Of a DNA stretch of 32,936 bases, positions 3,247 through 10,874 are shown piece after piece. Where the stretch lies: the IMG/VR virus record IMGVR_UViG_3300009132_000002; one strand, 5' to 3'. Each line of letters opens with the position of its first letter. The first letter of the stretch is position 1. The position numbers and the translations under genes are program-made. The notes beneath the pieces were generated by a model that did not search any database, was not told the origin of the DNA, and saw only the letters and a list, made by a program, of their open reading frames with translations. Source of the DNA: a virus (taxonomy: Duplodnaviria > Heunggongvirae > Uroviricota > Caudoviricetes).

Positions 3247-3528
3247 TTAAACCCCAAAACTTTCCCCACAACCACAATTGGCTGTAGCATTGGGATTTAC
3301 AACTTTTAAGTAAGAACCGCCAATTTCTTCTACATAATCTACAGTACAACCAAAAACAAACATCTCGGCTAATGGATCTAACCACAAATTTTCTACTGTA
3401 GGTTCTTTATCTGTAGTACCCCACTCATATTGAAACCCAGCGCATCCACCACCTTTTACGGTCAAGGATACGTTGGGTTTCCCTATTCTTTTAAGATATT
3501 CTTTAGCGGTTTCCGTTACTTGGATCAT
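3247..3528 (-). CDS. iscA: A-type Fe-S cluster carrier (IscA/SufA/ErpA, HesB family)
   Basis: GGGCAGFQY and C-terminal CGCGESF motifs; begins IQVTETAK. Confidence 0.92.
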   Translation of the reverse strand: MIQVTETAKEYLKRIGKPNVSLTVKGGGCAGFQYEWGTTDKEPTVENLWLDPLAEMFVFGCTVDYVEEIGGSYLKVVNPNATANCGCGESFGV

Positions 3529-3777: not shown

Positions 3778-4593
3778 TCATTCTGCTAACGGATTATCTA
3801 GTGCTTCTTGTAAGGTTTCTCTAATATCTTTATCTAATATTCTCATGTCTTCATCTATTCTTGACTCGGTTTGTCTCATGGTATCACGAACATCTTTTTC
3901 AGATTCTCTTATAGTTGATTCAACTTCACGAATGCTCTTAGTAACATCTTTCTGCAGTTGATTCATCTCGTTTCTAATACCCTCAAGTACATCATCTATA
4001 CTTGACTGAGTATCTTTAATTCTATTTTCAGATAATTCTAATTGCGTATTAATATTATCACGCATACCTGCCATAACATTCTGATTTTCCTGTAAAGCAA
4101 GCCGTTGTCTTTCTTGTGAAGTATCTAGTTGAGTTGCTATATTATCACGCATAGTTGACATGGTGTTTTGATTGTCTTTTAAAGTTGTTCTTAATCTTTC
4201 TTCAAAAGTATCAAGTTTAGTGTATACGTCATTCTTTAGATTTCTGACTGTGGTATCCATAGTCGTCATTTGATCATCTACACGTATTTTCATATTATTT
4301 GTTTTAGTTTCAATAGCTGTAATTAAAACTTCAAGTCGATTAATATCAGCTTTTATATCAACTTTAATGTCCTGTGTATAGCTTATTGCGTCTTCAAGTT
4401 TTTGTAGTTGTAAAGCATTTGCAGCTAGAATTTCATCTATATCAATATTCTGAATAATTTCTTTCATATCCATATAGTCTTTATAGATTTCAAATCCACC
4501 CCATGCGGCGCCACCTAAAGTAGAAAGTGCTGTAATTACAGCAAACATTTTTCCGCCGGAAAATTTTAATCCACCAAACTCAAGTTCTGCCAT
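3778..4593 (-). CDS. Membrane-anchored long coiled-coil protein with a 29-aa internal repeat
   Basis: N-terminal hydrophobic MFAVITALSTLGGAAWGG followed by about 230 aa of heptad-like helix. Confidence 0.75.
   Translation of the reverse strand: MAELEFGGLKFSGGKMFAVITALSTLGGAAWGGFEIYKDYMDMKEIIQNIDIDEILAANALQLQKLEDAISYTQDIKVDIKADINRLEVLITAIETKTNNMKIRVDDQMTTMDTTVRNLKNDVYTKLDTFEERLRTTLKDNQNTMSTMRDNIATQLDTSQERQRLALQENQNVMAGMRDNINTQLELSENRIKDTQSSIDDVLEGIRNEMNQLQKDVTKSIREVESTIRESEKDVRDTMRQTESRIDEDMRILDKDIRETLQEALDNPLAE
4052..4153. repeat. Intragenic tandem repeat, 87-bp (29-codon) period
   Basis: atattatcacgcata at 4052-4066 and 4139-4153; peptides NQNTMSTMRDNIATQL and NQNVMAGMRDNINTQL. Confidence 0.85.
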
Positions 4594-4601
4594 TTAAATA
4601 C

Positions 4602-4787
4602 CTAATTGAACGTATCTACTAAAGTAGGACCGAACTGTGATCCAGCCCATAGTACAGCAAGCATAGCAAAAAGACCTACTACCACCCACTTCATTTTAAA
4701 ATCATCTACAACCATCTTAATAGCAACTAATTCATTTCCCAGAACACGTATTGCCATTTCAAATTTTCCTTCGGGTTCATCAACCAT
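4602..4787 (-). CDS. Small membrane protein
   Basis: 61 aa, single TM WVVVGLFAMLAVLWAG; GGAG RBS. Confidence 0.75.
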   Translation of the reverse strand: MVDEPEGKFEMAIRVLGNELVAIKMVVDDFKMKWVVVGLFAMLAVLWAGSQFGPTLVDTFN

Positions 4788-4796
4788 TTTTATCTC

Positions 4797-5198
4797 CTAA
4801 TTCTCAAACTGCAATTCTCTTAACTGTTGCAGTTCTCTTTCAAGTTTCATAACTTCTAATTTCTTTTTTCTTAACTCAAGTTCATAAAGATCATTACAAT
4901 TTATTCTTTCCTTTGGTGCACCTATTGGAATAACAATTCTTCCATATACACCTACATCTCCAGCCCTACCAGTTCCATAATCTTGACTAAACGGATTATT
5001 TTCTTTTTGTATAATACCAGTTACGCCAAACTCAAATGTAGAAGCTGATCCTATAGAATTTGTACAATCTAAATCACCAGCTTTGATTCTATCATTACCA
5101 TAACCTTGAGATGCATTAGGTATGGCTAAATTCAAAGAAGCAGAATCCGCATAAGCAACTCCACTTAAAAATAATAATATAATAAAAAATAATCTCAC
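4797..5198 (-). CDS. Secreted protein with a Cys pair, amphipathic beta-hairpin and C-terminal coiled coil
   Basis: GTG at 5198 gives signal peptide MRLFFIILLFLSGVAYA; beta-like TFEFGVTG and VGVYGRIVIPIG; C-terminal ELELRKKKLEVMKLERELQQL. Confidence 0.75.
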   Translation of the reverse strand: MRLFFIILLFLSGVAYADSASLNLAIPNASQGYGNDRIKAGDLDCTNSIGSASTFEFGVTGIIQKENNPFSQDYGTGRAGDVGVYGRIVIPIGAPKERINCNDLYELELRKKKLEVMKLERELQQLRELQFEN

Positions 5199-5200
5199 GT

Positions 5201-5578
5201 TTATTCTCTCTTTATTCTGGAACATATCCTAGAAGACACTCCAGTAGATTTCACTTCGCCTTTCACAAGTTTAGATTCAGTACAAATAAACTCGACTTTT
5301 GTTTTATCTCTATTTCTTACATAAATATCTATAGTTTTGGTTTCAAGATAATTTAAAACAACTAATTGATTTTGTGTCGCAAATTGTACTTTATTCCACT
5401 CTTTATCATATACATCTATTTTATAAAATCTAATATCATCTCGCCGATTAAATAATTTAATAGTAGTTTTAGATAAGCCTGGGATATACGATTGATTAAA
5501 AACAGGATATGTTGGAGTCATTTCATGTGAATAAACTGGGCTTACAAATAATGTAAAAAATAATATAATATATTTCAT
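5201..5578 (-). CDS. Secreted PapD/EcpB-like pilus chaperone-like protein (single Ig domain)
   Basis: Signal peptide ...SPVYS; pattern HEMTPTY...TTIKLFNRRDD...YKIDVYD resembles the N-terminal domain of fimbrial chaperones; adjacent to a fimbrial-like subunit. Confidence 0.55.
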   Translation of the reverse strand: MKYIILFFTLFVSPVYSHEMTPTYPVFNQSYIPGLSKTTIKLFNRRDDIRFYKIDVYDKEWNKVQFATQNQLVVLNYLETKTIDIYVRNRDKTKVEFICTESKLVKGEVKSTGVSSRICSRIKRE

Positions 5579-5597
5579 AATAAACTTTTCTAATCAA

Positions 5598-6098
5598 TTA
5601 TTGAGCAATGCACTCTGCAACTACGATTGCAGTATATTCACCTTGTGGCATAGATGTATCAACACCATATGTCGCAGTTGAAGACACATTAATCCAAACA
5701 GAACCAGCTACCGTTAAATCATAGTCAGTTGTATTACCATAAGTTACTTTTGCTGCTTCATATCCAGACATATCAGTAGAACTCATAGATTCTACTGAAG
5801 TAGAGCCAGTCCATTCAACATTATCACTTAAACTTGGACTTGAAGAAAAACTTGTTGGTGTCGTAATTCTTGCTAGATAGTAACTAGCCTGTGAAGTATC
5901 AAATCTAATTTTAGGTAAAACACCTCCATCACTAGGTGTTGTACTTAGTTTATATGGCTGAGGTGTACCATACACACCATCAACTTCAGTTGATACCGAA
6001 CATTTAGATTCTACGGTTCCGGTTATAGGGACGTTCTCGGCACTAACCGCAGATACAGTCCCCAATAAAGCGCTTAAAATTAAAAATTGTTTGAACAT
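5598..6098 (-). CDS. Secreted fimbrial major-subunit-like protein (Csu/spore-coat-U-like Ig fold)
   Basis: Signal peptide ...AVSA; N-terminal VPITGTVESKCSV and C-terminal GEYTAIVVAEC resemble the first and last strands of chaperone-usher pilins; 166 aa. Confidence 0.6.
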   Translation of the reverse strand: MFKQFLILSALLGTVSAVSAENVPITGTVESKCSVSTEVDGVYGTPQPYKLSTTPSDGGVLPKIRFDTSQASYYLARITTPTSFSSSPSLSDNVEWTGSTSVESMSSTDMSGYEAAKVTYGNTTDYDLTVAGSVWINVSSTATYGVDTSMPQGEYTAIVVAECIAQ

Positions 6099-6108
6099 TT
6101 TTTGTTCC

Positions 6109-6136
6109 TATTTATTATTTTCTATTAGTATTTATT
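6109..6136 (-). promoter_or_regulatory. Two AATAAATA late-promoter-like boxes (6109-6116, 6129-6136)
   Basis: In or at the edge of the short gap upstream of the pilin-like gene; AT-rich context makes chance matches possible. Confidence 0.45.
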
Positions 6137-6995
6137 CATATTGTGATCTGACTATTCTTCGATGCAAAGTGTCAGACGCAAAATTTCTTAATGCGCGTCT
6201 ATTATCTGCTAATTCATTAGGCTCAAATTCTACCGTTTCGTTGTATATTCCTCCCGGAATATCTGTAGTATAATAATCATTTAATGCTTGTTCTTGTATG
6301 CTATAAGCGTCAAGTAATCCTGCTTGACCAGCATATTGTTCAAGTATTTCGTTATTTGTATTCAGGCGATTTTCTTCTTCGTTTTCTTCTTTTACAGATT
6401 CATTACGTTCTTCTGTAAGTTTAGTTTCAGAATTTAATACTTCTTGTACTTCATCATTATCATAAGGATTATCAGGTTCAACTTGTTTATTTAAAAGTGC
6501 CTGTTCAGCTAATAATGCGGCTAAAGCTTCTGCATATCCCGGACAGCTTGGATCACTTAATACTACTGCACAAGGATCAAATTGATAACTATATACAACT
6601 GTTGGATCGGTAACGCTTCCATTACCATCAATAGCTATTTCTCCATCACCAAATCTGTTTCCAGCAATTCTATCAATTGGAACAACCTTGTTTATAGTAC
6701 CACCAGGACCACCGCTCCAATCATCAGTATTTGAAAAAATATATCCGTTCGACAAAGTATCTTCATTACGAATATGTACTTTCATATCATCTGCAATTTC
6801 TTTATTTGCGGTATATCTATAGATCATTCCATTTATAATAAGACCCGTTTCACTCGGCAAAATACTACCCATGCTCCAATTCAATCCATTGGCTGCTGCA
6901 TTATTTGTAGTACCTGATACTATATCACTAGAGTAAGAGTAAGAGCAAAAGGCCACCCAAACCACCAACGCCCCAAAGAGTCTTTTTATCAGCAT
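6132..6995 (-). CDS. Secreted protein: beta-rich N-domain, Cys motif DPC-x8-CPGY, acidic/helical C-terminus (possible adhesin-like)
   Basis: ATG 6995 gives signal peptide MLIKRLFGALVVWVAFCSYSYS; 287 aa. Confidence 0.7.
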   Translation of the reverse strand: MLIKRLFGALVVWVAFCSYSYSSDIVSGTTNNAAANGLNWSMGSILPSETGLIINGMIYRYTANKEIADDMKVHIRNEDTLSNGYIFSNTDDWSGGPGGTINKVVPIDRIAGNRFGDGEIAIDGNGSVTDPTVVYSYQFDPCAVVLSDPSCPGYAEALAALLAEQALLNKQVEPDNPYDNDEVQEVLNSETKLTEERNESVKEENEEENRLNTNNEILEQYAGQAGLLDAYSIQEQALNDYYTTDIPGGIYNETVEFEPNELADNRRALRNFASDTLHRRIVRSQYE

Positions 6996-7473
6996 CTGAC
7001 ATTTCTTTCTTATAGTTGCTTCCCGGTTGCATATCTTTATTTTCTTGCCATGCAGCTTTCGCAGATTCTCCAATCATTCCATCAAAAGGACACGGCGTAC
7101 CAGCATTCATCATAGCATCAAAAACTCGTTTATCTTGACACATTACAGATACTGCTGCAACTTTCATCCCCATATCATATAAAGTTTTCGCATTTTTTAA
7201 TTTTTCACAATTCATATCTCTTACTGTACTACCAGCTGAGATACCAAGTATCTGAGTCTGCACAGCGCCTGCAATACCTACAGTACATAAATCTGAATTT
7301 GATGTACTAATCGAAGGTGAAACCGCAGAAGGTGGTGGTGAGTTTACAGTAGTATTAGAATCAATTGTTGAATTAATTGTACTATCATTTGTAGTTTCTT
7401 GTACAATAGGATCTGCTGCAAAAGCTGCAGTGCTTATAAAAAATAACATAAAACATATTACAAAATATTTCAT
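6928..7473 (-). CDS. Secreted, C-terminally membrane-anchored Cys-rich protein
   Basis: ATG 7473 behind GGAG; signal peptide ...STAAFA; four Cys; C-terminal TM LWGVGGLGGLLLLLLL. Confidence 0.8.
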   Translation of the reverse strand: MKYFVICFMLFFISTAAFAADPIVQETTNDSTINSTIDSNTTVNSPPPSAVSPSISTSNSDLCTVGIAGAVQTQILGISAGSTVRDMNCEKLKNAKTLYDMGMKVAAVSVMCQDKRVFDAMMNAGTPCPFDGMIGESAKAAWQENKDMQPGSNYKKEMSDADKKTLWGVGGLGGLLLLLLL

Positions 7474-7506
7474 AATGTTACACTCCAAAATCATTAAATA
7501 CTTTTC

Positions 7507-7514
7507 TATTTATT
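7507..7514 (-). promoter_or_regulatory. AATAAATA late-promoter-like box
   Basis: Intergenic, about 34 nt upstream of the first gene of the secreted cassette. Confidence 0.5.
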
Positions 7515-7531
7515 AAAAATTAACGACACTA

Positions 7532-7906
7532 TTATAAATTATCTTTTTCTAAATCCCATGGTTGGTTTCCAGTAAATGGTTCAAAATCGGCACCTGGCAT
7601 TAATAAACACGCCATACCATCTTCAAACACCATAATAATACTACTTCTACCAGTATCTTGATTTACAAATGTCATAGTTTTGCCTGGGTAAAATTGACCA
7701 GTAGTAGCTTCCAAAACATACCCACGACTAGAAAATAATAATCCTTCTCTACCACTTGCAATAACCCCATACACATTTTCAACGGAATCACAGGGCAAAC
7801 TTATAATTATATTTTTACTTGTATTTTCCTGCGAATAAGCAATTGACGTAAAACAAATTATAGTCCACATAAAACATATTAAAATCCATGTTATTAGAGT
7901 TTTCAT
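7532..7906 (-). CDS. Secreted hypothetical protein
   Basis: ATG 7906 behind AAGGA; signal peptide MKTLITWILICFMWTIICFTSIAYS; Cys pair (LPCD, MACL). Confidence 0.75.
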   Translation of the reverse strand: MKTLITWILICFMWTIICFTSIAYSQENTSKNIIISLPCDSVENVYGVIASGREGLLFSSRGYVLEATTGQFYPGKTMTFVNQDTGRSSIIMVFEDGMACLLMPGADFEPFTGNQPWDLEKDNL

Positions 7907-7924
7907 ATTATCATCCTTTTCAAA

Positions 7925-7954
7925 ATAAAAAAGGAGGGTTAACCATGACCCTCC
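7925..7954 (-). terminator. Rho-independent terminator
   Basis: GGAGGGT-loop-ACCCTCC stem (7954-7933) followed by TTTTTT on the minus strand. Confidence 0.85.
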
Positions 7955-8029
7955 GCGCACCTATTAAGCAGTGAACCTTTTGAGCGGCACGTTGTGTTTG
8001 AAACTCCACCCAATTATCATAGATAATAC

Positions 8030-8037
8030 TATTTATA
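8030..8037 (-). promoter_or_regulatory. T4-type late promoter TATAAATA immediately after the porin stop
   Basis: Exact consensus abutting TAA at 8038-8040; faces a roughly 95-nt non-coding stretch ending at the terminator. Confidence 0.5.
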
Positions 8038-8814
8038 TTAGAAGTTGAAGCTAGCACCTACTGCTGGTGTCCATGCTTCATCATCAAGGTTATATGCTGT
8101 TTCAGCAAATACATTGATACCACCTAAGTCAGTAGCAACTTGACCACCAACATTTTGCGCCATTTCATCCATATCGCCATTTACAAATGCAGTAAGAGCT
8201 GAGTATGAAGCTGAAGCCTCATAAGCAAATTCTTCATTTGCATAAGTAATTACTGCGCCTACTGCAGCACCTTGAATTTCAGCACTTACATCAGCTCCAT
8301 AAGCAAATTCTTCAGTATCCATATTATAATCGAGAGCAACACCTACACCAATTGCATTTACTTCAGCTGAGTAGCCAAGCTGCAAATTTTGTAGTTCTGT
8401 CATATCTGTTTTATAATCTTTTACTGCTGCCATAAATGAAGCATCGCCTAAAGATACAATAATGCTTTCAGATGTTGATGGATCAGCAAGTGTATCATCA
8501 CCTACAACTTCAAGACCTGCACCCGGAAATAAATCTCCTTGATCTCCAACTGAAACTGACATGCCGTTTACCGCAGTTCCAAGTGACCATCCGTCAAGTG
8601 CAACTGCACCACCGTCTACCATTCCAAGATCAATTGATCCAAAAGCACCTGTTTCTAATGTAGAACCAAAGCCTAAGTCAATTGAATTTTTTCCGACCCA
8701 TTTATCGGATGAGTTTTGTGTTACATCTAGCTTTACTGAGCCAGAAATATCTGCAGCATAAGCGTTACCTGCTAAAGCAAATACTGCACAAGAAGTAAGA
8801 AGAAAATTCTTCAT
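8038..8814 (-). CDS. Outer-membrane porin (alphaproteobacterial/Rhodobacter-like beta-barrel)
   Basis: Signal peptide ...GNAYA; alternating amphipathic beta-strands; C-terminal BAM signal ...AVGASFNF; very acidic. Confidence 0.8.
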   Translation of the reverse strand: MKNFLLTSCAVFALAGNAYAADISGSVKLDVTQNSSDKWVGKNSIDLGFGSTLETGAFGSIDLGMVDGGAVALDGWSLGTAVNGMSVSVGDQGDLFPGAGLEVVGDDTLADPSTSESIIVSLGDASFMAAVKDYKTDMTELQNLQLGYSAEVNAIGVGVALDYNMDTEEFAYGADVSAEIQGAAVGAVITYANEEFAYEASASYSALTAFVNGDMDEMAQNVGGQVATDLGGINVFAETAYNLDDEAWTPAVGASFNF

Positions 8815-8946
8815 TTGTTATTTCCCTTGTTTTTTTGTTGTTTTTATGTAGACTCTTGCAGTTTCCGAACACGTCTACAGCATTCCTCATGACCCATCAG
8901 CAAGTTTGGTTCCTTTTCGTAAAAAGGACAATCTCTATTTTTATAT

Positions 8947-9150
8947 GATAGGAGGGACTTGCGATTACCCTCAACCCGGTCAACAGTCGCTCTGACAATT
9001 TCCAGGAGCCTAGCATTGGATAGTTACTTCCAATTTATACTGCATCTTCATGTCTCCACGCTCATGCAGTGCCACCACAGCTACTAGCCAAGTTCGGGGC
9101 CTGTAACCCCTCTTCCTTGCACTATCTAACATAGGTCCGTCGACCTAGCT
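8947..9150 (-). ncRNA. Candidate ~200-nt structured non-coding RNA (family unassigned)
   Basis: GC-richer non-coding stretch with five hairpins: 9132-9147, 9096-9110, 9039-9070, 9016-9033, 8952-8972; no ORF in the track. Confidence 0.6.
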
Positions 9151-9163
9151 ATTCTATTAATAC

Positions 9164-9460
9164 TGCCACTTTTCTGTTGCTAAGCAAGTGGCCAGCTCCC
9201 TGTGATTATGCCGCTAAGGCAAATCCAGATGGTGCAAAATTATCGTTTGCATTTGTAGTTTTTGACCGAATAACGTAGGTCAACACGATAAACTCCACTC
9301 AATATTCACACCTGTCGATCCTATTTCGACCCCATCATAAACACACTTTATATTGAGAGGTTCTTACGGCTTCAGTGCTGCCTCATAGTGTGTTTATGGT
9401 GGAGTCGCTGGGTACTGCCCCCAGGTCCAGTATGTGTCCACGTTGCTTCAACGTTTACAG
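9164..9460 (-). ncRNA. ssrA: Circularly permuted (two-piece) tmRNA, alphaproteobacterial type
   Basis: Acceptor piece first (T-arm CTGGG-GGCAGTA-CCCAG, then CGACTCC-A-CCA ending 9397), 63-nt intervening hairpin, then coding piece starting GGGGTCG at 9333 (G3:U70 Ala pair), AGGATCGAC, and tag frame 9250-9206 = ANDNFAPSGFALAA-stop; outer ends approximate. Confidence 0.95.
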
Positions 9461-9465
9461 ATTAT

Positions 9466-9494
9466 ATAGTATCATATAATGAGTAATAAGTAAA
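9466..9494 (-). promoter_or_regulatory. Sigma70/T4-early-type promoter for tmRNA
   Basis: TTTACT-17 nt-TACTAT with TG at the extended -10; start would fall near 9460. Confidence 0.75.
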
Positions 9495-9530
9495 CCATTT
9501 ATTAATCATTAATAAAATGTAGTAAATATG

Positions 9531-10316: not shown

Positions 10317-10874
10317 TCATCTATAAAAAATATGGTCGTCAACCTTGGTCACAAGATCATATGCGGTTCTCCAATAAGGAGACACTTTAATTGAGTGGTA
10401 CATTATAGAACCGTGTGTGGGATCCTTAAATAGATAACCTGCTGTTCTATCCATTAATACTACTTGAGCAACAATGCCGGCTTGTCTCCATGCAGCTTGT
10501 GATATTTTATTAGTAGGAATACGATCAGACTTTCCATCACAATACCAACTAAAATGACACATGTTACGAATAGGTTTACCATTCTTGTCACGCTTTGCTT
10601 GTTTCACAACTCCACAAATAGTATTTGGATATAGTGAACTATCTAATCTATTAAGAGTTACCCAAGCAACAGCAACTTGCCCCTCGACTGTTTGGTTACG
10701 TGCCTCAAAGAAAATATTTTGACGTAAACAATATACATCATCGTAAGTAATTCTCTGGACAATCTGCTTTGTCCAACTATTCTCACTGGCGTATAATTGG
10801 GTGCCTGCAACAACTACAATCGCTGTTGCAGTAATACCATTGATGACACCCGATAAAAAATTACGAAGTTTCAT
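10317..10874 (-). CDS. SleB/CwlJ-like cell wall hydrolase (Hydrolase_2) with N-terminal hydrophobic segment
   Basis: CLRQNIFFEARNQ, GQVAVAWVTLNR, PNTICGVVKQ, FSWYCDGKSD, DHIFY. Confidence 0.9.
   Translation of the reverse strand: MKLRNFLSGVINGITATAIVVVAGTQLYASENSWTKQIVQRITYDDVYCLRQNIFFEARNQTVEGQVAVAWVTLNRLDSSLYPNTICGVVKQAKRDKNGKPIRNMCHFSWYCDGKSDRIPTNKISQAAWRQAGIVAQVVLMDRTAGYLFKDPTHGSIMYHSIKVSPYWRTAYDLVTKVDDHIFYR

Follow-up and report, generated by a model that had tools for sequence, protein, structure and literature searches.

A conserved six-gene cassette of marine phages encodes exported envelope proteins, among them a pilin-type subunit and a single-domain PapD-like protein

A stretch of 32,936 nucleotides from a tailed phage (Caudoviricetes; IMG/VR record IMGVR_UViG_3300009132_000002), referred to throughout as the window, carries nine consecutive minus-strand genes (8814 to 3778) that code for envelope proteins; we name them by protein length, so that g258 encodes 258 amino acids. 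Six of the nine, g181-g287-g166-g125-g142-g271, form the core of a cassette in which export signals and membrane anchors, paired cysteines, a fixed gene order, an immunoglobulin (Ig) fold of the pilin type in g166 and a PapD-like fold in g125 could all be demonstrated in silico, as could the absence of an usher and of CsgG from related phages. Weighing these observations together, we lean toward the view that the cassette is an usher-independent chaperone-subunit module exported into the envelope of the infected cell.

In the mechanism we propose, all cassette products would leave the cytoplasm via Sec and form their disulfides in the periplasm; g125 would cap g166 by lending its last beta strand to a groove between the first and last strands of g166, with the invariant N-terminus and R46 of g125 seated at the C-terminal end of g166; and the N-terminal extension of g166 (PITGxV) could replace the chaperone strand in a neighboring subunit, yielding a noncovalent polymer or a capped complex. 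We put polymerization of g166 at slightly below an even chance. Without an usher, the product would most likely remain in the periplasm or at the cell wall, where its likely holders would be g142, whose bacterial relatives carry an OmpA domain, and g181 and g271, both presumably tethered to the inner membrane. Of the roles considered, the likeliest is that the cassette would remodel or block the envelope during infection, perhaps shutting out other phages or masking receptors; even so, we hold this role in blocking or exclusion to be less probable than not, and a role as a lysis scaffold is its closest alternative.

The g166 subunit, the g125 half chaperone and their predicted complex

The AlphaFold2 model of g166 (predicted local distance difference test, pLDDT, 88.7) is a beta sandwich from residue 33 onward, preceded by an unstructured N-terminal extension (residues 21-32) that holds the conserved motif P24-I25-x-G27-x-V29, in which I25, G27 and V29 are invariant; the C-terminal strand carries the motif PxGxYTAxVxAEC, and C33 and C163 form an invariant, disulfide-type pair. 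We take the extension and the C-terminal motif to resemble the donor and acceptor strands of pilins. The top Foldseek matches in the PDB are all chaperone-usher pilins (CfaB, CS17, FimG, the PapG pilin domain, Caf1 and PsaA; E ~1e-3, TM score ~0.5); the protein, for which the Ig-sandwich model is confident, is the one that a preliminary description of this DNA, made from the sequence, had called pilin-like. Matches among AlphaFold Database (AFDB) clusters are DUF4402 (the best), SCPU and WxL; the Atlas search gives SCPU at 0.95 and DUF4402 at 0.93; and a sequence-profile search of the PDB returned nothing relevant. VIA-align places staphylococcal MSCRAMM Ig domains first (Z 7.9, root-mean-square deviation [rmsd] 3.2, 105 aligned residues) and scores the archaeal cannula subunit CanA at Z 6.0, values in a range that can mean merely a common arrangement. 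Because other Ig-type adhesin domains rank equal or higher in VIA-align, we use "pilin" for a fold class and not as a family assignment: as modeled, g166 has an Ig fold of the adhesin/pilin type.

The mature g125 protein is 108 residues long and is modeled as one domain (pLDDT 86.3); members of its family run to ~120-135 residues including the signal peptide. Invariant features are the mature N-terminus H18-E-x-T-P-x-Y, the residues N44 and R46, and the C99/C119 pair. Foldseek returned 59 matches at E <= 1e-3, led by DraB (3e-5) and followed by PapD, SafB, FaeE, Caf1M and FimC; these are interspersed with MSP domains, and DUF916 is also among the fold matches. VIA-align gave FimC (Z 10.8, rmsd 2.5, 100 aligned, chain residues 1-116), SafB (10.8), YadV (10.2), PapD (9.8), CsuC (9.4) and the enterococcal WxLIP (8.9). 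The two aligners thus agree that the modeled g125 is a single PapD-like domain, equivalent to the N-domain of PapD-type chaperones and lacking the two-domain boomerang (PapD_N plus PapD_C) of the PapD/FimC family; the earlier surmise that the gene next to the 166-residue protein specifies a one-domain PapD-type chaperone is upheld at the level of fold. The Atlas lead from g125 to PapD_N is weak (0.83).

Multimer modeling, which had been suggested as a check on the preliminary description, was run for the g125-g166 pair. On a complex score (ipSAE) whose mark 51 of 78 solved complexes attain, as do 2 of 108 mismatched pairs, mature g166 with g125 scored 0.64, as against 0.08 for the best control; three runs shared at least 91% of contacts, and the pLDDT of the partner was at least 84. 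In the model the last strand of g125 is placed between the A and F strands of g166, with g125 residues 113-121 parallel to g166 residues 158-165 and antiparallel to residues 33-37; the invariant g125 N-terminus (18-24) and R45/R46 contact the last residues of g166 (164-166); and g166 residues 21-29 take no part in the predicted contact and are left free. Such parallel and antiparallel insertion of a chaperone strand is the topology of donor-strand complementation in Pap and Fim complexes, and it is the topology predicted for g125-g166. The groove of g166 is seen by implication, in this complex model alone, and the score that the pair attains denotes likeness, not binding; we nevertheless consider it probable that the two proteins really work by strand donation.

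A competing interpretation would make g125 and g166 a stable heterodimer with a role other than assembly, such as periplasmic binding, or metal binding through the N-terminal histidine of g125, the likeness to chaperone-subunit pairs reflecting no more than a shared Ig fold. Ig-like folds are indeed very common, the Z scores of g166 are middling, and mature g125 begins with an invariant histidine, a feature of some copper-binding proteins. That histidine is, however, the single invariant one in g125; strand insertion at the predicted interface follows the geometry particular to chaperone-subunit complexes, with the N-terminus of g125 in contact with the C-terminus of the subunit; and a plain heterodimer leaves the conserved, free N-terminal extension of g166 unexplained. 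We regard a nonassembling heterodimer as quite improbable.

Export signals, gene order and the absence of an usher

The window belongs to a T4-like marine myophage, with almost every gene on the minus strand, a GC content of ~34% and DNA similar to that of Pelagibacter phages; its genes include a gp43-type DNA polymerase, UvsX, a gp41-type helicase, a primase and glycosyltransferases. Signal peptides were judged by one simple heuristic applied uniformly to the 46 open reading frames (ORFs) of the window. Eight are signal-peptide-like, seven of them consecutive (8814 to 4797), the eighth being an endolysin-like gene (10317-10874); outside the nine-gene run, a single ORF among 37 appears exported. 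The Sec-type run of seven genes is followed by two membrane-anchored ones (4787 to 3778), and genes of the cassette overlap or lie no more than 33 bases apart (Table 1). All five consecutive genes for which Sec signal peptides had been claimed are present as minus-strand ORFs and are flagged by the heuristic, although the run begins two genes earlier than was thought, with g258 and g124. The small transmembrane protein and the membrane-anchored, 271-residue coiled coil said to follow them are borne out by the hydrophobic segments of g61 and g271 and by the coiled coil of g271, and the paired cysteines prove to be invariant in alignments of g166, g125, g142, g287 and g181, each exported core protein having an even number of invariant cysteines throughout its family.

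Table 1. Genes of the envelope cassette in the window, from 8814 down to 3778; coordinates of g181, g287, g166, g125 and g142 run from their likely true start codons
Gene	Coordinates	Strand	Features	Place in cassette
g258	8038-8814	-	Signal peptide; C-terminal ...SFNF, an outer-membrane-protein-like end	Accessory
g124	7532-7906	-	Small exported protein with signal peptide; start is Met19 of a longer GTG frame	Accessory
g181	6928-7473	-	Signal peptide	Core, first gene
g287	6132-6995	-	Signal peptide; likely start is Met27 of a longer TTG frame	Core, second gene
g166	5598-6098	-	Signal peptide; Ig-fold subunit, pilin type	Core
g125	5201-5578	-	Signal peptide; single-domain PapD-like protein ("half chaperone")	Core
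g142	4797-5225	-	Signal peptide; beta-rich part and coiled coil	Core
g61	4602-4787	-	One C-terminal transmembrane segment, by hydrophobicity	Accessory
g271	3778-4593	-	N-terminal membrane anchor, then coiled coil	Core, last gene

Among 95 loci, the order of the core is kept in each one long enough to show it. Identities of core genes drop to 35-60% across these loci, and the six-gene order is fixed in ~70 different flanking arrangements, far beyond chance, which answers the call in the preliminary description for a comparison of gene order. The contigs that carry the cassette extend in size from 60 kb (podophage size, in a contig that is complete and has terminal repeats) to 155-220 kb (myophage); g287 invariably lies between g181 and g166, g271 is found in 77 loci, and the accessory genes g258, g124 and g61 occur in 22, 16 and 18 of the 95, respectively. 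The cassette is a mobile six-gene module, and its share of a podophage-size genome of 60 kb, ~6%, must mean that it is strongly selected for. It is also abundant in the ocean: the g166 family comprises 1381 protein clusters and is present on at least 547 IMG/VR contigs, and the domain of g181 alone accounts for at least 8000 clusters. Five g166 homologs were also found in bacterial genome assemblies; all five lie on short metagenome-bin contigs and keep the phage gene order, and they are therefore probably mis-binned phage DNA, uninformative as to host.

No usher was found by a search for Pfam Usher (PF00577) in five related phage records that carry the cassette, of which two are rated 100% complete, and the same search recovered the copy in E. 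coli used as a control. Within the window the DNA polymerase is the one ORF of ~800 residues, in keeping with the earlier remark that no usher of about that size is present, and a hidden usher is ruled out for the five phage records searched. Nor do these five records contain CsgG, for which the copy in phage HTVC008M served as positive control (E 1.8e-54), and no cassette protein matches a curli family in Pfam; we could accordingly rule out the published pelagiphage curli cluster, there being no CsgG or CsgF and the genes of the HTVC008M cluster being different. An outer-membrane-like gene is lacking both from the core and from podophage-size contexts, which argues that the product stays in the periplasm.

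The same evidence bears on a more extrovert structure, a surface fimbria or Caf1-like coat whose subunits cross the outer membrane via a g142 pore, a g258 barrel or a host machine, and which would clump host cells ("sibling capture") or shield the infected cell. Consistent with such a fiber are i) the pairing of a pilin-like with a chaperone-like protein; ii) the secreted, outer-membrane-like protein with a terminal Phe that adjoins the core in 22 of 95 loci, and the smaller proteins with similar ends found elsewhere; and iii) the pelagiphage curli clusters, which occupy a comparable variable region and have given rise to the same idea of aggregation (PMC7029224, PMC9599517), cassette phages being without CsgG so that cassette and curli could be alternatives. 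Yet there is no usher; g258 is absent from most loci and has a terminator-like hairpin of its own; podophage-size contexts offer no outer-membrane-like gene at all; and a monomeric barrel would need a larger protein than mature g142, whose bacterial relatives point to peptidoglycan and not to a pore. We consider a surface fiber unlikely.

Several points also weigh against the usher-independent chaperone-subunit module that we prefer. An outer-membrane route may exist after all, with g258, a host machine or a pore of g142 oligomers as the conduit. For g181, g287, g142 and g271, four of the six in the core, there is neither a fold nor a family assignment. The fold of g166 is not specific to chaperone-usher pilins, all its VIA-align Z scores being below 8 with MSCRAMM domains in front; g166 matches no Pfam pilin family at E <= 1, and hhalign of its alignment (A1) against that of DUF4402 gave 5% probability, so that membership of g166 in DUF4402 or SCPU finds no support by sequence. 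No Pfam PapD_N (PF00345) match to g125 was obtained at E <= 1. Finally, the score of the g125-g166 complex may stem from solved chaperone-subunit complexes that the model has memorized.

If the chaperone-subunit interpretation is nonetheless true, donor-strand assembly works without an usher in cells with two membranes, and lytic phages build a periplasmic or surface structure of their own in the host. Such a structure would bear on superinfection exclusion, cell aggregation and lysis in SAR11-type bacteria, for which the curli cluster is the only comparable phage system described.

The remaining cassette proteins and their neighborhood

The g181 protein consists of a Ser/Thr-rich linker, an SPPP motif, a highly conserved four-cysteine domain (residues ~55-150; 45 invariant columns in alignment A3, the four Cys among them) and a short hydrophobic tail, GGLLLLLLL, that is probably an inner-membrane anchor. 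The protein matches PHROG 20531 (E 7e-14), and its domain is not confined to the cassette, being present in HTVC115P, HTVC023P, Mosig and roseophage CRP-810, whose gene is annotated "OmpA family protein" and adjoins a lysozyme gene. The g287 protein has a beta-rich N-domain, a C142-C151 loop (DPSCPGY, with invariant cysteines; alignment A4), an acidic, probably disordered linker and a conserved segment at the C-terminal end, GGxYxET...LPDNxRAxRNLAxDxLHxxMVRSQY; it has no Pfam, PHROG or PDB-sequence match and is possibly an adaptor or tip-like subunit. In g142 a beta-rich part of ~85 residues, closed by the invariant C54-C110 pair, precedes a C-terminal coiled coil ending in LQFEN (alignment A5). 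This protein, our candidate anchor, matches PHROG 37374 (E 1.5e-8), and its profile retrieved 401 representative clusters at E <= 1e-3. A six-stretch match of the g142 profile to P0262, an 875-residue leucine-rich-repeat protein, was treated as spurious.

The g271 family, of ~150-271 residues, shares a conserved N-terminal anchor and an invariant C-terminal LQEALDNPLA, the coiled coil between them varying almost two-fold in length from phage to phage; its Pfam matches are weak and of coiled-coil type only, and its N-terminal part is 36% identical to gp49 of HTVC115P. An Atlas search with g142 gave unnamed viral clusters only, and sequence-profile searches of the PDB with g142, g287 and g181 gave nothing useful. 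Sequence profiles gave no link among g166, g287 and g142, hhalign of A1 with A4, A1 with A5 and A4 with A5 having matched signal peptides only, and these comparisons gave no sign of internal duplication among the cassette proteins. HTVC115P (5708-8829) holds a reduced variant, in which the g181-like gp54 and the g271-like gp49 flank unrelated genes for proteins of 466, 120, 73 and 45 residues in place of the pilin, chaperone and g142.

These proteins and their neighbors invite another explanation, in which g271, g142 and their partners would span the periplasm and help to break the outer membrane or to time lysis, as a multipart stand-in for spanins. Several observations speak for it: i) 25 of 94 loci have, no more than 5 kb from the cassette, an endolysin-like gene belonging to one of three families, and 11 more have a class-3 lipase gene at such a distance; ii) the endolysin-like gene of the window, also on the minus strand, lies ~1.5 kb upstream of the run, matches PHROG 938 (E 1e-17) and has a signal or signal-anchor-release (SAR)-type N-terminus; iii) in the cultured Vibrio phage 252E42.2, relatives of g166, g125 and g142 are followed by genes for a 55-residue lipoprotein, a holin-like protein and what appears, judged by sequence, to be a lysozyme-type endolysin; and iv) g271 has the topology of an i-spanin and an invariant extreme C-terminus. 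Against this, no lipobox occurs in any pelagiphage core protein and there is thus no o-spanin equivalent, although no search specific to spanin families was made; lysis has no need of a pilin-chaperone pair; bacterial chromosomal trios lie far from lysis genes; the coiled coil of g271 varies almost two-fold in length; and accessory genes ("morons") often collect beside lysis and tail-fiber genes, which makes neighborhood weak proof. A lysis accessory is in our view rather unlikely.

As to the accessory genes, g258 has no Pfam match and g124 no family match in Pfam or PHROG; homologs of g258 stand directly upstream of the core. A GC-rich, terminator-like hairpin with a T-run lies between g258 and g124 (7933-7954, minus strand), which suggests that g258 is transcribed apart from the core cassette. 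Directly upstream of g258 is a permuted transfer-messenger RNA (tmRNA) gene of alphaproteobacterial type (9162-9519, minus strand; RF01849, 115 bits; RF04321, 119 bits), and the same succession of tmRNA and g258 recurs in four other myophage loci (L005, L022, L066 and L080). Between the two, the stretch 8942-9147 on the minus strand matches the manA RNA motif (RF01745; 44.1 bits, E 7.8e-10, below the Rfam gathering score of 55.2) and could be a g258 leader; the motif went undetected at E <= 1e-4 in six related loci. The T4 late-promoter motif TATAAATA occurs in four copies as against 7.7 expected by chance and is uninformative on timing, and a scan for sigma-70-type promoters stayed at chance level.

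In other phages, g61-like genes (18 loci) often follow a class-3 lipase gene (Lipase_3): at L041:7684-8421 and in 10 other loci, a Lipase_3 gene (E 1e-21) and then a g61-like gene stand just downstream of the cassette. An HlyC-type acyltransferase gene lies within 5 kb of the cassette in two loci. In podophage contexts (L030:6787-9638, and gp46-gp47 of HTVC115P, the variant with g181 and g271 only), such a gene (Pfam E 1e-13 to 1e-15) adjoins the cassette and has beside it a gene for a large protein of ~700-800 residues without a family; a phage-encoded acylated protein would be unusual. Right after the cassette in the window, at 3247-3528 on the minus strand, is the gene for a 93-residue protein that ends in CGCGESFGV and matches only PHROG 17776, of unknown function; we presume it to resemble an iron-sulfur cluster protein of the IscA/HesB type.

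Comparison with known systems

Our literature searches turned up no account of a phage cassette of this kind, in agreement with the preliminary description, whose author knew of no characterized lytic-phage system of this layout. Relatives by sequence occur in Vibrio phage 252E42.2, where gp33 (149 residues, E 1e-5), gp34 (132 residues, E 1.8e-4) and gp35 (112 residues, E 2e-11; all E-values computed against a small protein set) match the profiles of g166 (A1), g125 (A2) and g142 (A5) in the same order. A trio of pilin-like, half-chaperone and g142-like genes also occurs in plain bacterial operons, as a three-gene set adjoining suf genes in one locus (L129) and, on a 1.16-Mb contig (L126/L127), as two subunit-like and two chaperone-like genes with an OmpA-fused third protein; both loci match the three profiles in that order, and no usher was called beside the trio in either. 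The bacterial g142 homologs P0209 and P0232 are longer and end in an OmpA (PF00691) peptidoglycan-binding domain, and the joining of OmpA to g142-like and g181-like domains suggests a link with the cell wall. Relative to these trios the marine cassette has three further fixed members, g181 and g287 upstream and g271 downstream, and is without a lipoprotein gene; in the bacterial versions the genes for subunit and chaperone can be duplicated.

We tentatively entertain a broader reading, in which a pilin-like subunit, a half chaperone and a g142-type anchor would make up a self-sufficient, usher-less assembly system common to bacteria and many phages, its product a donor-strand polymer in the periplasm or on the cell wall, to which marine phages would have added three parts in order to re-engineer the infected cell, for exclusion or in preparation for lysis. 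If true, the trio would constitute a new class of envelope structure, and its shorter form in cultured Vibrio phages makes the idea testable at the bench.

With chaperone-usher systems (Fim, Pap, Caf1, Saf, CFA/I and the archaic Csu) the cassette shares a Sec-exported, disulfide-bonded Ig-fold subunit; the free N-terminal extension and C-terminal Gly-x-Tyr strand motif of that subunit; a PapD-like protein encoded next to it; and, in the predicted complex, a last chaperone strand parallel to the last strand of the subunit. It differs in that the cassette and related complete phage genomes are without an usher, g125 has one domain and not two, no Pfam Fimbrial, SCPU, PapD_N or PapD_C match is found in the cassette, four extra conserved partners are present, and the carriers are lytic phages.

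Alphaproteobacterial DUF4402 loci resemble the cassette in that g166 finds its best AFDB fold match in DUF4402 and that, in 4 of 5 genomes examined, DUF4402 genes adjoin a weakly PapD_N-like gene; that gene, however, encodes 285-356 residues, and DUF4402 shows no profile relationship to g166. Two of these loci (L118 and L120) have tandem DUF4402 genes, a PapD_N-like gene of 324-335 residues and then a protein of 899-954 residues that Pfam Usher does not recognize and that has an SdrD_B-like domain at its C-terminus; they may represent an uncharacterized bacterial fiber system.

The curli clusters of pelagiphages are likewise multigene sets for exported proteins, in a comparable variable region of marine SAR11-type phages, and like the cassette they are common to myophages and podophages; the proteins are unrelated, and phages with the cassette are without CsgG. 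In HTVC008M, CsgF, CsgG, a curlin-associated protein and an adenylate cyclase are encoded at 7.5-13.8 kb; the published clusters are sited between the replication and structural modules, and their authors proposed a role in aggregation (PMC7029224, PMC9599517).

The nearest described donor-strand systems that do without an usher are the Pam pili of candidate phyla radiation (CPR) bacteria, for which donor-strand exchange and putative PapD-like chaperones are reported (PMC13278184), and the WxL/WxLIP clusters of Gram-positive bacteria. Both combine Ig subunits with PapD-like proteins, and for WxL/WxLIP the likeness extends to individual folds, WxL being among the AFDB matches of g166 and both DUF916 and WxLIP among those of g125. 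Both are cellular systems of cells without an outer membrane, and no sequence relationship to them was found, whereas the cassette is carried by phages and would act within the two-membrane envelope of the cell that they infect.

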